Origin: Clostridiales bacterium UBA4698
Lineage (GTDB): Bacteria; Bacillota; Clostridia; TANB77; UBA1234
DNA: 64,000 bases
Assembly (NCBI GenBank): GCA_002404755.1
Contig: DHKI01000032.1
Location: forward strand, 43,039 to 107,038
Direction of reading: 5' to 3'
How positions within the stretch are numbered: the first letter of the stretch is position 1; each line of letters opens with the position of its first letter. Shown piece by piece: positions 23,409 to 30,775 of this stretch. The notes under the pieces were generated by a model. It worked only from the letters and a program-made list of their open reading frames with translations, was not told the DNA's origin and ran no database searches. The position numbers and the translations under genes are program-made.

Positions 23409-24197
23409 ATGAAGTACGAAAAAGAGATCAAGGTTTTAGACATCGACATTGAAACGACCATGTCAAATTTGCAAGTAATTGGAGCTGAATTTGTAGGTAA
23501 GAAAGAACAAAAAATTTATGTTTACGATGTTCCAACTTTGTATTATCGCTATCTTGAGATTTGTGAGCTTCTGAAAAGCTCGAATGAATTGATGGTGACT
23601 ACAAATATTGGGAAATTAAAAGTGCTTTTGGAAGAGTTTGTCGACTTAATTCCTGAAGGTGATTTGATAGGTTTGACGGTCGAGTTAGGTGTGAAAGACA
23701 TTAGAGAAATTTTGAAACTTCCTGTAGAAAAAATGCTTGAAAAAATTCAAGGAAGAGCTTTCTTTGAAAAAATTAGTTCATACAAGATTAATCCAAACAA
23801 ATGGATTAGACTTAGAAAAAGCAATGAAAAAGTTGAACTTACAACAAAGCACATATTTAACAAAAAGGAAATGAAGGTTCAGGCTGTAGAGGAAAGAGAG
23901 ATAACCACATCTTCTTTTGAAGAAACTAACAGTATTCTTGAAAGTATAGGCATTGTTAAGAAAAGTTATCAAGAAAAAATTAGGTATAGTTACGAATTAG
24001 ATGGAGCTAATATCGAGATTGACTTGTGGCCATTACTTAACCCATATCTGGAGATTGAGTGTGATGATGTAAGTGTGATTGAAAGCATTATTACTAGATT
24101 AGGACTTACTGATAAAGAAATCGTTTCTATTAATACTCAGCAGTTATATCGTAGAATAGGTATTGATTTGCAAAAAACACCGGAACTTAAGTTTTAA
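23409..24197 (+). CDS. CYTH-domain protein (triphosphate tunnel metalloenzyme / CyaB-ThTPase family)
   Basis: N-terminal EIKVLDIDIE...LQVIGAEFVGKKEQKIYVYDVP matches the CYTH EIE...Q.D.YFD pattern. C-terminal YELDGANIEIDLWPLLNPYLEIECDD matches the terminal beta-strands with the ExE motif. Confidence 0.5.
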   Translation: MKYEKEIKVLDIDIETTMSNLQVIGAEFVGKKEQKIYVYDVPTLYYRYLEICELLKSSNELMVTTNIGKLKVLLEEFVDLIPEGDLIGLTVELGVKDIREILKLPVEKMLEKIQGRAFFEKISSYKINPNKWIRLRKSNEKVELTTKHIFNKKEMKVQAVEEREITTSSFEETNSILESIGIVKKSYQEKIRYSYELDGANIEIDLWPLLNPYLEIECDDVSVIESIITRLGLTDKEIVSINTQQLYRRIGIDLQKTPELKF

Positions 24198-24314
24198 CCT
24201 TTAAAAAAGGGTATTTCATAAAAAGTGACAGTTTAAATTAAATTGACACAGAAAAAGGGATATGAGGCTACATTAAATTGTAGTCTCAATTTATTTTATA
24301 ATGGAGGTACGGTA

Positions 24315-24866
24315 ATGGATAATATTAATTTAAATTTATATAAAATTTTTTATATAGTTGCTAATTCTAAAAGCTTTGTAGAGGCATCTAATAAATTATA
24401 TATTTCACAACCAGCAATAAGTAAAGATATAAAAACATTAGAGTCTATAATGAATACAAAATTGGTTTATAGAAAAAATAATGGAATAACTTTAACTAGA
24501 GATGGAGAAGAGTTTGTTAAATATCTGGAGGAATCATTTGGTATATTAAATGTAGGAGAGAAGATAATAAAACAAAGAAATGATTTATCAAGTGGAAATA
24601 TATCTATTGGTTGTCCTTCTCATATATCATCACTTTTTTTGATGGAAAAAATAGAAGAGTTTAAAAAGGACTTTTCAAATATTAGAATTCGATTATGAGT
24701 GGGTCAAGCGAACAATTAATGAAAATGTTACAATTGCACAAAGTTGATTTTATAATAGATACTTCTCACAATACAAGTATATATAATAATTTAAAGATAA
24801 AACATATAAAGGAATTTGATACAATCTTTATTTCAAACCAAAAAAGAAAAAACGAACGCAGATAAG
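24315..24866 (+). pseudogene. LysR-family transcriptional regulator, frameshifted and C-terminally truncated
   Basis: wHTH NLYKIFYIVANSKSFVEASNKLYISQPAISKDIKTLE. The reading frame ends at 24698 (IRIRL*). The substrate-binding-domain sequence SIMSGSSEQLMKMLQLHKVDFIIDTS continues in the +2 frame and stops at 24866, about 100 aa short of a full-length LysR. The junction lies in aattcgatt. Confidence 0.6.
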
Positions 24867-24894
24867 AAATTAATAAGAGAATATTTAGAAAAAT

Positions 24895-24934
24895 AATATA
24901 GATATAACTTCAAGTTATATCTATATTATTTTTT
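24895..24934 (+). terminator. Rho-independent terminator
   Basis: Perfect 13-bp stem atatagatataac / gttatatctatat, 5-nt loop, then tattttttt. Confidence 0.65.
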
Positions 24935-24998
24935 TGTATTTGTTTGTTTTTATTATGCATTATAAAATCACATAAAAATATATTAAAGGAGGAAATGT

Positions 24999-28423: not shown

Positions 28424-28435
28424 GAGGAAAATAAA

Positions 28436-29206
28436 ATGCAAAAAAAAGAAATATGCTGGAATATAACAACAAGATGCAATCAAGATTGTAAATATTGTCA
28501 CAGATTTTTGAATGTTAAAGAGTTGCCATTTGAAAAAAGTGAAAAGATTTTAGATAATTTAGTAAAAGATAAAATTACAGATATTACTTGGACAGGTGGA
28601 GAAGCATTAATATATGAAAATATAGATAAGTTAATTGAAAAAGCGTATAAAAGCGGGATAAAAAATAAGCTAATAACAAATGGAAAAATTCTGGCAAAGG
28701 GTGATATGCATATTATTAAGTATTTAGATAGCTTAACATTATCAATAGATTCTAATAATAATCAAATAAATGAAAAACTTGGTAGAGGAAAAAATCACTT
28801 TATAAATATTAAATATATATTAGATTACATTAAGGAAAATAATATTAATATAAAGTTAAGAATTAATACTGTTGCAAATAAGCTAAATATTAAAAATATG
28901 AGTGAATTAATGACTTTTTTAAATGAATACAATATTTATGCTTGGAGGATATTCAGATTTATGCCATTAAGGGAAACTGCAATAAAAAACAAAGAACAAT
29001 TTGAAATTTCCGATGAAGAATTTGAATCTATAAAGGTCAAAAGTAAAAAAGAGAGTAATATAAAAAGAATAGAATTTCGTCAAGAAAAAGATATGGAACA
29101 AAAGTATGTATTGTTAGTTGCAAATGGTGATATAGTTGTAACTGAAAATGGAAAAGATTTAAAAAAAGGAAATGCTTTGTTTGATAGTGTATCAAAATAT
29201 ATGTAA
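28436..29206 (+). CDS. Radical SAM enzyme of the viperin-like family (candidate prokaryotic viperin / nucleotide-modifying radical SAM)
   Basis: CNQDCKYC is a CxxxCxxC cluster in the context ICWNITTRCNQDCKYCH (viperin: NYHFTRQCNYKCGFCFH). Other segments align with human viperin: TWTGGEAL, LITNGKIL, LDSLTLSIDS..GRGKNH (LDILAISCDS..GRGQGKKNH), IKLRINTVANKLNIKN (FKINSVINRFNVEE), AWRIFRFMPL (RWKVFQCLLI) and EISDEEFES (VIGDEEFER). Confidence 0.7.
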   Translation: MQKKEICWNITTRCNQDCKYCHRFLNVKELPFEKSEKILDNLVKDKITDITWTGGEALIYENIDKLIEKAYKSGIKNKLITNGKILAKGDMHIIKYLDSLTLSIDSNNNQINEKLGRGKNHFINIKYILDYIKENNINIKLRINTVANKLNIKNMSELMTFLNEYNIYAWRIFRFMPLRETAIKNKEQFEISDEEFESIKVKSKKESNIKRIEFRQEKDMEQKYVLLVANGDIVVTENGKDLKKGNALFDSVSKYM

Positions 29207-29218
29207 AGGAGAAAAGCT

Positions 29219-30055
29219 ATGAGTAATGAAACTCCAAATCTTATAATAATAGGAAATATAGCATATGATGTAATTGATTTTGGCAAAGTTTTTGATGACA
29301 GAGAACAAATTGATGAAATTGGAGGAGCTTGTGTATTTTCAGCTATTCCTGCTAGTTTTTTTAACAGGGTAGGTGTGGTTGCTAAAATTGGTGAAGACTT
29401 TGACCTTTCTAAATTTTATAATTATAATATTGATTTGTCAGGAATAAAAAGATTGAATCTTCCAACAACTAAATTTTATACTATATGGAATACAATTGAT
29501 GGTCAAAATAGAACTATTATTGGTGAGGTGCAGCCTGATATGGAAGTTGGTGCTAGTGATATACCGGAAAAATTCTTAAAAGCGAAACATTTTCATTTGA
29601 CTACGGCCAATCCTTTGAAACAACTAGAGATAATTAATTATTTGAGAAAGAAAACAACGGCAACAATTAGTGCAGATACAATTGATTGTTACGCCAAACA
29701 ACCAGAATGCAAAATGGTTTTTGATAATGTTGATATAGCTTTTATAGATAAAGAGTATACCAATTTATTGGATTGTAAAGCACGAATTAAGATTATAAAA
29801 TATGGTAAAGAAGGTTGCTTATATTATTCAAGTAAAAAAAGTTTTCCTGTTTATGCAAATGTAATAGAAAATGTTGTAGACAAAACGGGAGCAGGAGATT
29901 GTTTAAATGGAGTTTTTTTGAATTTATTAATTAATGGGCAAAACGAAATTAAAGCATTAACTACAGCTGTAAATATAGCCACAGAATCAATAAAGAATAG
30001 AGGAATAATGAGTTTGAAAATACCATCTAATGTAAAATATGATGTGGAAATATAA
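29219..30055 (+). CDS. PfkB-family (ribokinase-like) sugar/nucleoside kinase
   Basis: N-terminal IGNIAYDVI..GGA and C-terminal anion-hole motif DKTGAGDCLNG. Confidence 0.75.
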   Translation: MSNETPNLIIIGNIAYDVIDFGKVFDDREQIDEIGGACVFSAIPASFFNRVGVVAKIGEDFDLSKFYNYNIDLSGIKRLNLPTTKFYTIWNTIDGQNRTIIGEVQPDMEVGASDIPEKFLKAKHFHLTTANPLKQLEIINYLRKKTTATISADTIDCYAKQPECKMVFDNVDIAFIDKEYTNLLDCKARIKIIKYGKEGCLYYSSKKSFPVYANVIENVVDKTGAGDCLNGVFLNLLINGQNEIKALTTAVNIATESIKNRGIMSLKIPSNVKYDVEI

Positions 30056-30307
30056 AAATACAAAGTTGAAATGCATGTTTTGTAAATGAGAGCCCAAAAT
30101 AAATATGTTAATGACAAAATTGAATATACGAAGCTGATGAGGGTGCAAGTTAGAATACTTACACCTCAATGTTTTTTAAAAAGGTCATTACACATAATGT
30201 GAGGCTTAAATCAAAAAAAGATAAGAGACTTTGCCTCAAAATATAATTTTGAAATGATGTGGATGAGTTTATATGGAACTTTATTTGGTATATTTAGGAG
30301 GAGTAAT

Positions 30308-30775
30308 ATGGAGGAATATGAATATAGTTTTGAGGTTGCTGGAATTGAACCATATATAGAATATTGTGAGAAAAATTCTTATAAACTACGTAAATCAAAT
30401 ACACAAAAAAGAATTGTTTATGAAAATTTTTATAATAAAAATGTATTAGCGAGAATTACAACTGAAATCGAGAATAATAATGAAATCACAAAAATCGATT
30501 TTAAAAATGTTGGCAAAAATGAAAAAGATTTAAAAGTTTCGAATGAATCAATACCAATGTTAATTACATCTGAAAACATTGATATGATTGAATCTATTTT
30601 AGAGGTATTAAGATTTGAAAAAACCTCTGAGCTTAAAAGAGAAAGATATGTTTATATAAAAAATAATGTTAAGTTTGAAATAGATAAATATATTGAGCCA
30701 ATAATGAATGTTGTTGCCATAGAGGGAGAAAAGTCTTTAGTGGACAGTGTTTATCAAGAAATAAAAGAGCTTTGA
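30308..30775 (+). CDS. CYTH-like (triphosphate tunnel metalloenzyme) domain protein
   Basis: Strong RBS taggaggagtaat-ATG at 30308; the ORF track starts at 30254. N-terminal EYEYSFEV...QKRIVYENF and C-terminal RERYVYIKNNVKFEIDKY...VVAIEGE fit the CYTH pattern. Confidence 0.45.
   Translation: MEEYEYSFEVAGIEPYIEYCEKNSYKLRKSNTQKRIVYENFYNKNVLARITTEIENNNEITKIDFKNVGKNEKDLKVSNESIPMLITSENIDMIESILEVLRFEKTSELKRERYVYIKNNVKFEIDKYIEPIMNVVAIEGEKSLVDSVYQEIKEL

Follow-up and report, generated by a model that had tools for sequence, protein, structure and literature searches.

A recurrent mobile gene cassette joins a viperin-like radical SAM enzyme to a U32-family protein in gut bacteria, a candidate route to modified nucleotides

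The window analysed here is a stretch of 64,000 nucleotides from Clostridiales bacterium UBA4698 (contig DHKI01000032.1). Between typA (21292-23106) and queA-tgt (queA at 30913-31947, tgt at 31992-33116) it carries a block of genes at 23409-30775, and all genes from typA through the block to tgt lie on the + strand. The greater part of the block, from the CYTH gene through the PfkB kinase gene (23391-30055), constitutes a transferable unit, called the cassette below. It recurs in other gut genomes and combines an enzyme of the radical S-adenosylmethionine (SAM) family, of predicted viperin fold, with a nucleotide kinase, a U32-family protein and a probable methyltransferase. Flank genes were labelled through Pfam on the identical contigs L067 and L069 (compared loci and contigs carry L numbers). 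The block holds the following features.

23409-24197, + strand: CYTH / triphosphate-tunnel protein of 262 amino acids (aa) with an insertion of about 80 aa, recognised by its family profile against solved tunnel enzymes.
24315-24896, + strand: LysR-family regulator pseudogene (HTH_1, 57.7 bits).
24999-25620, + strand: thymidylate-kinase-family (VakA-type) nucleotide kinase, frameshifted (Pfam Thymidylate_kin).
25595-27706, + strand: U32-family Fe-S protein, 703 aa, with two alpha/beta barrels in the predicted structure (Pfam Peptidase_U32, PF01136, 152.7 bits).
27713-28423, + strand: probable class I SAM methyltransferase, TehB-like, 236 aa (weak profile matches).
28436-29206, + strand: viperin-fold radical SAM enzyme, non-canonical, 256 aa (hidden Markov models, profile against PDB, predicted fold).
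29219-30055, + strand: PfkB-family kinase, 278 aa (Pfam PfkB, 57 bits).
30308-30775, + strand: conserved small protein ORF155, 155 aa, a flank gene; a CYTH-like fold is possible, unproven.

The first-pass annotation, made from the letters of the window, had described an AT-rich accessory block, and the composition agrees with it. The G+C content of the block is 26.1% against a window mean of 30.8% (standard deviation 1.9% for 7.4-kb windows), the lowest of any 7.4-kb stretch in the whole window. The gene list given at that stage is confirmed by profile searches, except that the split of the kinase went unreported, the last gene encodes 155 rather than 173 aa, and the CYTH identity of that gene is not established. 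The typA terminator proposed as the left edge is a 17-bp hairpin at 23112-23154 (dG -17 kcal/mol, z -5.7) followed by a U-rich tract; a consensus scan missed it because the stem is AT-rich. The queA promoter proposed as the right edge stands in part: a promoter-like site with an extended -10 element (TTTGCA-17-TATAAT with TG) is present at 30790-30818, but such matches near the block are not above chance (69 found against 60 expected). Genes of the cassette overlap or are spaced by 6-12 nt. Searches for RNA elements in the block returned no Rfam match, and a single sub-threshold small-RNA match falls over the typA terminator.

Recurrence of the gene set is the central observation. A scan of one genome per species yielded 60 loci, all from metagenome-assembled genomes of the gut, to which metagenome contigs were added; the hosts are Clostridia, Bacilli and a few genomes labelled Muribaculaceae or Bacteroidaceae (Bacteroidota). 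The radical SAM family occurs in three architectures, and of 66 related loci 61 have a LysR gene upstream of it. Architecture A contains the U32 gene. Its compact variant, to which the window belongs, reads [NUDIX]-CYTH-LysR-kinase-U32-methyltransferase-radical SAM-PfkB, where brackets mark variable genes. The extended variant begins with GreA-like-LysR-HAD-kinase-[MBL]-[GreA-like]-U32-[DAHP synthase] and continues with methyltransferase-radical SAM-[radical SAM/SPASM]-second methyltransferase-CYTH-[PLP-decarboxylase-like]. Architecture B pairs LysR with the radical SAM enzyme as a fusion to a receiver-like domain (396 aa). Architecture C has the order LysR-radical SAM-PfkB, the last two adjacent or fused, and a receiver-like protein of 133 aa.

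Gene content was counted over 25 U32-bearing loci, a set that includes the window and several loci from the same species. The kinase, the methyltransferase and the radical SAM enzyme accompany the U32 gene in 25/25, the CYTH gene in 23/25 and LysR in 22/25. Less regular companions are GreA-like genes (14/25), a HAD phosphatase and a second methyltransferase (12/25 each), PfkB (11/25, in the compact variant only), an MBL-fold hydrolase and NUDIX (7/25 each), a pyridoxal-phosphate (PLP)-decarboxylase-like gene (6/25), radical SAM/SPASM (5/25) and DAHP synthase (4/25). Look-ups seeded from the U32 protein recover the same core. The joint presence of kinase, U32, methyltransferase and radical SAM genes in every one of these loci makes them a conserved module, whose invariant core comprises a nucleoside-monophosphate kinase of VakA type, a two-barrel Fe-S U32 protein, a methyltransferase resembling TehB and a radical SAM enzyme of viperin fold, with CYTH and LysR nearly always present. 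The first-pass annotation had proposed recurrence of the gene order as a check on its reading, and the core does recur; its view of the whole gene set as a unit holds for this core, while PfkB belongs to the compact variant. GreA/GreB-like genes, one or two per extended cassette (L015:2146-2670 and 5851-6387), encode proteins of about 175 aa with a GreA match of 43 bits and a GD...DN tip motif. As a speculation, such Gre-like proteins could excise a chain terminator from the RNA polymerase of the host and so rescue it, or, in the manner of Rnk, act as regulators of nucleotide kinases.

The loci of architectures B and C share with the window a radical SAM enzyme of 57-65% identity, an upstream LysR gene and, in the PfkB-bearing form, an adjacent or fused PfkB. 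They differ by being devoid of U32, methyltransferase, kinase and CYTH genes, and commonly adjoin AbiQ and a Spo0A-like regulator within a recombinase-bearing element. A full-length AbiQ (PADLOC, 164 bits) stands beside the LysR and radical SAM genes in 23-31 loci (for example L004:9375-9854), a large serine recombinase about 5 kb downstream in 27 loci, and a Spo0A-like receiver regulator on the opposite strand in 40 loci. Natural fusions join the radical SAM enzyme to PfkB (about 549 aa; L023, L030, L037 10001-11650, P0241) or to a C-terminal receiver-like domain of flavodoxin fold (396 aa; L011-L034; Response_reg 28.7 bits, below cutoff). L004-L006 carry, at about 4684-6764 and a few kb upstream of LysR-AbiQ-radical SAM-PfkB, a diversity-generating retroelement (bAvd plus part of a reverse transcriptase) and fragments of MutS_I.

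The surroundings of the cassette change from genome to genome. Two contigs of a close relative, L075 and L077, are 95.8% identical to the window in DNA from 30783 onward and 86% identical in the ORF155 region, and have nothing in common with it upstream of 30206. The slot equivalent to 23.4-30.2 kb of the window is filled there by an unrelated cluster (L075 593-9001; also L077). Genes of that cluster code for a fusion of a GHMP kinase with a methyltransferase (566 aa), an aminotransferase, a protein with a weak U32 match (385 aa), an M23 peptidase, an acetyltransferase, an AAA_28 protein and a glycosyltransferase, and one further gene encodes 170 aa. The same flanks thus enclose different clusters, so that the slot is a variable hot spot, and the cassette is an accessory, replaceable segment. 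This comparison takes the place of an empty site, as an exact TypA look-up returned the same context only. Cassette positions 23391-30015 recur at 74-77% DNA identity in L001-3, within a split Zip gene and together with a NUDIX gene, a resolvase and a recombinase; in L073 the cassette resides on an element with a resolvase, Mob_Pre and TnpV. As previously stated for integrases and transposases, the block itself contains no recombinase, and comparison for repeats or att sites around it gave AT-rich chance matches only. Since its relatives adjoin serine recombinases, the cassette is mobile all the same. Searches of 50,697 phage records for the radical SAM enzyme, and of IMG/VR for this enzyme and the U32 protein, turned up no homologue; this absence from phage and viral collections is neutral with respect to a defence role.

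ORF155 does not travel with the cassette. Its family is widespread (221 clusters), it is kept beside queA in L075, where the viperin cassette is replaced, and a homologue lies within the murD-ftsW-ftsZ region in other genomes (L078). For these reasons we place it outside the module as a flank gene, and its earlier description as a second CYTH member of the pathway is not sustained. The protein has no Pfam match even at E 10. Its similarity to the CYTH profile is weak (hhalign E 0.002, probability 14%), CYTH entries of the PDB are reached at E of about 0.1 only, and the N-terminal motif is ExExS, not ExExK; a CYTH-like fold is possible on these sequence comparisons. ORF155 was also compared with the 133-aa receiver-like protein that follows PfkB in L004, and no similarity was found.

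The closest profile and fold matches of the radical SAM enzyme are viperins. Its CxxxCxxC motif (C14, C18, C21) and GGE motif (G54-G55-E56) are invariant in 55 homologues. The best NCBIfam match is viperin_w_prok (NF038283) at 134.9 bits, against 66.5 bits for MoaA, and the family profile scores viperins of the PDB at 86 bits and MoaA at 53 bits. An AlphaFold model with a confidence (pLDDT) of 92.3 displays the partial barrel and the C-terminal extension closing the barrel that define the viperin fold. The 17 best Foldseek matches in the PDB are viperins or viperin-like proteins (TM score 0.77-0.85, most entries reaching 0.82-0.85 with their best chain; root-mean-square deviation 2.6-4.3 A); mouse and fungal viperins match the model over the whole chain (TM 0.82-0.85, 2.6-3.2 A), whereas MoaA reaches TM 0.66-0.70. 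The original grouping of the enzyme with viperin, and not with MoaA or QueE, is thereby upheld, and an identity as a queuosine (QueE) or MoaA-type enzyme is rejected by profile, predicted structure and tree.

The same enzyme departs from canonical viperins in the substrate pocket. We aligned the family with mouse viperin and four plasmid-borne proteins annotated by PGAP as 'viperin family antiviral radical SAM proteins'. All five reference viperins carry N77, H79, K/R120, R194, K/R220, N222, R245, W246, K247 and Y302, and three of the four annotated prokaryotic proteins have a C-terminal RGG tail. In the window family the ten positions are occupied by C, N, D/N/S, R, R/N, N, A/S/other, W, R/K and Y. 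Residues R194, N222, W246 and K247 (as R/K) are therefore kept, and the invariant Y224 aligns with mouse Y302; the residue differs at four positions (C for N77, N for H79, D/N/S for K120, A/S/other for R245), and the chain ends before the RGG tail. In the paper on structure 6Q2P these pocket residues, several of them lost here, reportedly hold the triphosphate. The commonest pattern among the 120 nearest representatives at 50% identity is C-N/D-K-R-K-N-R-W-K-Y. Ten of ten sampled relatives have the viperin model as their best match, all below its cutoff (100-168 bits). In a neighbour-joining tree rooted on E. coli MoaA, which has short internal branches and carries no support values, canonical viperins stand apart and the window family forms a derived tip of a Cys77 group. 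By its model, the enzyme has a viperin fold; related radical chemistry is probable. The loss of four conserved pocket residues and of the tail suggests that its substrate is probably not a plain nucleoside triphosphate (NTP), which leaves the earlier proposal of a viperin that modifies the NTP by a radical mechanism doubtful.

A more distant radical SAM protein, 26% identical to the window enzyme and bearing no PGAP viperin label, is encoded on the E. coli IncF plasmid NZ_CP045714.1 (L084:3968-5965). Its gene is followed by one for a deoxynucleoside kinase and one for NudI, a nucleoside triphosphatase, and toxin-antitoxin systems stand on either side. The locus is thus a further design in which a radical SAM enzyme is combined with a kinase and an NTP hydrolase. 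The pocket signature of this radical SAM protein is different again: D, R, R, S, K, T, A, W, R, N.

These results bear on the simplest explanation of the locus, in which an ordinary prokaryotic viperin (pVip) and its kinase make plain ddhCTP, ddhUTP or ddhGTP for defence, and the neighbouring genes for U32, methyltransferase, CYTH and PfkB have no part in it. Bernheim et al. in 2021 reportedly described prokaryotic viperins with associated kinases (pVip / VakA), and 12% of bacterial viperins have a neighbouring kinase. The window locus has the same pairing of a viperin-fold radical SAM enzyme with a thymidylate-kinase-family kinase, as does the vertebrate viperin-CMPK2 pair. It also shares with pVip / VakA systems the best profile and structure matches, the Tyr302 equivalent with the other kept residues, and a mobile accessory context. 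The PADLOC pVip profile ('viperins associated with kinases'), which has no stated curated cutoff, scores the enzyme at 154 bits, and the intact form of the kinase matches PADLOC VakA over its full length (61.8 bits). Automated tools such as PADLOC would probably label the window enzyme pVip. We nevertheless consider an ordinary pVip system very unlikely. The enzyme scores below the curated cutoff of 180 bits for viperin_w_prok and has lost the pocket residues and tail described above, canonical viperins are placed apart from it in the MoaA-rooted tree (again with no support values), and the supposed bystanders are tightly spaced with it and recur as a core in 25/25 loci. Unlike pVip / VakA systems, the window family is nearly always linked to LysR, and in the U32 architecture it always has the U32 protein and the methyltransferase and usually CYTH.

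The U32 protein falls short of an equivalog-level match to characterised members: TrhP scores 156 bits against a cutoff of 534 and UbiU 132 against 440. Residues 1-250 correspond to the canonical barrel and are 35% identical to E. coli RlhA (hhalign E 7e-28). They include a first invariant set of four cysteines, C166/C173/C189/C193, in the Fe-S motif CX6CX15CX3C typical of the TrhP, RlhA and UbiU-UbiV family. The C-terminal part of about 450 aa does not align with RlhA and has no Pfam match, yet it contains a second invariant set of four cysteines (C595, C602, C605, C628). In the AlphaFold model (pLDDT 87) the canonical barrel is followed by a beta-rich domain and then a second alpha/beta barrel that bears the second cysteine set; TrhP, RlhA and UbiU-UbiV have no such extension. 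The best Foldseek match of the model in the PDB is the U32 protein Mk0906, after which generic TIM barrels only are retrieved; by sequence, the protein matched none of the solved structures. The two-barrel layout of the predicted structure recalls the two-subunit UbiU-UbiV. An internal duplication was considered: hhalign places the N- and C-terminal barrels in register, at a non-significant E of 0.19.

U32 proteins have been proposed to be prephenate-dependent hydroxylases (PMC10990095, PMC6599085, PMC5727448), with prephenate as the oxygen donor (PMC10990095). Four cassettes include a DAHP synthase (353 bits; L015:8444-9304, L036:7694-8551, L042, L056), in three of them between the U32 and methyltransferase genes and in the fourth elsewhere in the cassette; the window is without it. 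A DAHP synthase so placed would be consistent with prephenate being provided on the spot to the U32 protein. The succession of a hydroxylase and a methyltransferase also mirrors the conversion of 5-hydroxyuridine to 5-methoxyuridine (ho5U to mo5U) by TrhP and TrmR; TrhP works with a methyl or carboxymethyl step of TrmR or CmoB.

This likeness raises the alternative that the locus is an RNA-modification or nucleoside-salvage module, whose U32 protein and methyltransferase, supported by the other genes, would make a 5-hydroxy- or 5-methoxypyrimidine in tRNA or rRNA of the host cell, after the fashion of TrhP/TrmR or RlhA. The characterised members TrhP and RlhA act on RNA (PMC6599085, PMC5727448), the N-terminal domain is close to RlhA and gives a TrhP match, and the block adjoins queA-tgt in the window. 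That adjacency is not conserved, for the cassette is found in the split Zip gene of L001-3, on the Mob/TnpV element of L073 and elsewhere, and another cluster takes its place in L075. The distribution is patchy and mobile, and the catalytic Peptidase_U32 domain is the only part that Pfam finds in a protein of which 450 aa are foreign to RlhA. The window U32 gene further differs from those of TrhP, RlhA and UbiU-UbiV in being embedded among nucleotide kinases and phosphohydrolases; these genes (the kinases, CYTH, NUDIX and HAD phosphatase) point to free nucleotides and suggest a free nucleotide or nucleoside as the substrate rather than RNA or a quinone. We regard RNA modification as decidedly unlikely.

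The methyltransferase has weak Pfam matches (about 23-25 bits), matches TehB at 7e-6 and PADLOC mad2 at 1e-7, and aligns with E. coli TehB by hhalign (E 1.5e-4, probability 51%); its profile matches none of the PDB sequences. The protein is strongly conserved (mean column identity 79%), including its class I motifs VGCSDG and GYDID and the motif FTSCSLHY. Residues 212-229 hold the invariant segment FEGAHVDCVxDHFHRFGY, whose cluster of H216, C219, H223 and H225 looks like a metal site foreign to standard class I methyltransferases, so far as sequence can indicate.

The CYTH protein is below the Pfam cutoff as a single sequence (18.1 against 23.2 bits; cyaB 26.5 bits). Its family profile (A4) reaches Saci_0718 at 1e-11 and 1yem and 2dc4 at about 1e-8 in the PDB, and the full tunnel set is invariant (ExExK, RxR, K, ExE, D, ExE). 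There is a precedent for a viperin linked with a triphosphate-tunnel domain. The window protein resembles it in the complete motifs and the Saci_0718 match, and differs in being a separate gene and in its insertion of about 80 aa, which the L064 copy lacks. The PfkB kinase matches PF00294 at 57 bits against a cutoff of 25.8, with G35-G36 and DKTGAGD (221-227) invariant, and its best PDB match is the carbohydrate kinase 3kd6 (1e-14). Its gene is the one that adjoins or is fused with the radical SAM gene in other architectures.

Taken together, the cassette is a conserved, mobile and closely packed operon, acquired horizontally and found again and again in other genomes. Its gene content suggests that it turns a nucleoside or nucleotide into a modified analogue, most likely one that is dehydrated, hydroxylated and methylated, and most plausibly an intracellular antimetabolite acting against phages or replicons. 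We hold this reading tentatively, at a little under an even chance. The PfkB and VakA-type kinases would supply or re-phosphorylate the substrate. The radical SAM enzyme would carry out viperin-type radical chemistry on the ribose of a compound that probably bears fewer phosphates than an NTP, or other substituents. The U32 protein might then add a hydroxyl without O2, probably from prephenate, and the methyltransferase might cap the hydroxyl so placed. The CYTH enzyme, with NUDIX or HAD in other variants, could trim or detoxify phosphorylated forms. No transporter is among the regular genes of the cassette in the loci examined, which argues that the product stays inside the cell. We infer a possible antiviral role from the likeness to pVip-kinase systems, from the AbiQ and recombinase genes found around the wider family, and from the fact that the cassette is mobile.

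A more specific form of this reading has the viperin-fold enzyme act on a nucleoside, nucleoside monophosphate or cyclic nucleotide, followed by the first prephenate-dependent hydroxylation of a free nucleotide, performed by the two-cluster U32 protein, and by O-methylation. The product would be a new class of polymerase poison that gut Firmicutes direct against phages or plasmids, with CYTH, NUDIX or HAD enzymes and the Gre homologues serving as self-protection in extended variants. In this detailed form we think the scheme rather unlikely.

Several observations weigh against the antimetabolite reading. Every catalytic step is assigned through family membership. The sub-cutoff viperin score, the replaced pocket residues and the missing tail mean that the radical SAM reaction may differ from the synthesis of 3'-deoxy-3',4'-didehydro (ddh) nucleotides, and the methyltransferase is a probable one, drawn from weak profile matches. 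U32 hydroxylases are known to act on RNA or on a prenylated quinone precursor, and free nucleotides are not among their known substrates. Control by LysR is commoner in metabolic operons than in defence systems. Among the A-type accessory proteins tested there was no specific PADLOC defence match; the sole match, of the second methyltransferase to mad2, reflects the methyltransferase fold.

Some of these points would equally suit a secreted or signalling small molecule, either a nucleoside antibiotic or a non-nucleotide metabolite, made for competition or signalling instead of phage defence. LysR is typical of metabolic operons, the altered radical SAM pocket permits a substrate other than an NTP, and extended variants add enzymes of a tailoring type, namely a second methyltransferase, a second radical SAM enzyme (radical SAM/SPASM), a protein resembling PLP decarboxylases, a HAD phosphatase, an MBL-fold hydrolase and DAHP synthase. 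The regular cassette genes, on the other hand, include neither an exporter or transporter nor an obvious resistance gene, the hosts are small-genome gut Firmicutes, and relatives of the radical SAM enzyme reside beside AbiQ on recombinase-bearing elements. A cluster of this kind appears unlikely to us.

The condition of the window copy bears on the antimetabolite reading as well. The typA-block-queA arrangement is found in four contigs of the same species (L067, L068, L069, L070); the radical SAM protein is identical in L067 and L068 and 99% identical in L069 and L070. L069 is 97.7-98.7% identical to the window locus in DNA and has intact LysR (291 aa) and kinase (206 aa) genes. The LysR gene was described earlier as frameshifted and truncated, and comparison with L069 accounts for both lesions: the window is short of 1 bp at 24690/24691 and, through an internal deletion at about 24850, of another 293 bp, and the gene stays in frame for the N-terminal ~125 codons only, short of intact HTH_1 and substrate-binding domains. 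The 293-bp deletion is real, because the independent contig L067 has it in common. The regulator is, by its sequence, dead in this lineage. Directly 3' of the LysR remnant, and upstream of the operon that runs from the kinase to PfkB, an AT-rich inverted repeat at 24868-24954 (43-nt arms, 77% complementary, with a T-run) probably serves as the terminator of LysR.

The kinase gene is split into open reading frames (ORFs) at 24999-25319 and 25288-25620 by one extra T in the run at 25312-25317, relative to the intact 206-aa genes of L067, L068 and L069. Among the contigs compared the lesion is seen in the window copy alone, and may be real, a homopolymer assembly error or phase variation. In the conspecific contig L068 it is the U32 gene that is split. 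With a LysR pseudogene and a frameshifted kinase, the operon reads as decaying in this genome, and the window copy may be inactive.

We see a substantial minority chance that the window copy is an inactive relic, whatever the ancestral role; this possibility is compatible with the other readings. The two LysR lesions, the larger of them common to an independent assembly, the kinase frameshift and the split U32 gene of L068 speak for it. Set against it are the intact, full-length ORFs of the U32 protein, methyltransferase, radical SAM enzyme, PfkB and CYTH in the window, the single homopolymer base on which the kinase lesion turns and its possible technical or phase-variable origin, and the prospect that the operon, if its LysR was of the repressor type, could have been de-repressed and not silenced by the loss. 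Intact copies of the cassette are found in L069 and L001.

A full-text literature search returned no paper linking viperin with U32, PfkB or CYTH in this sense, in line with the first impression that the combination is undescribed. There is a real chance that the module carries out new chemistry. Viperins are among the few immune enzymes common to bacteria and animals, and their products are natural chain-terminating antivirals. If the antimetabolite reading is true, the cassette points to new natural nucleotide analogues. It would also provide the first small-molecule nucleotide substrate for the largely uncharacterised U32 family, making prephenate-dependent hydroxylation testable on a simple substrate, and would mean that enzymes whose substrate pockets differ are given one and the same 'pVip' label by automated tools.

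Outside the block, the window contains a T-box leader at 49963-50141 that scores 102.6 bits, above the gathering score, and is unrelated to the cassette.

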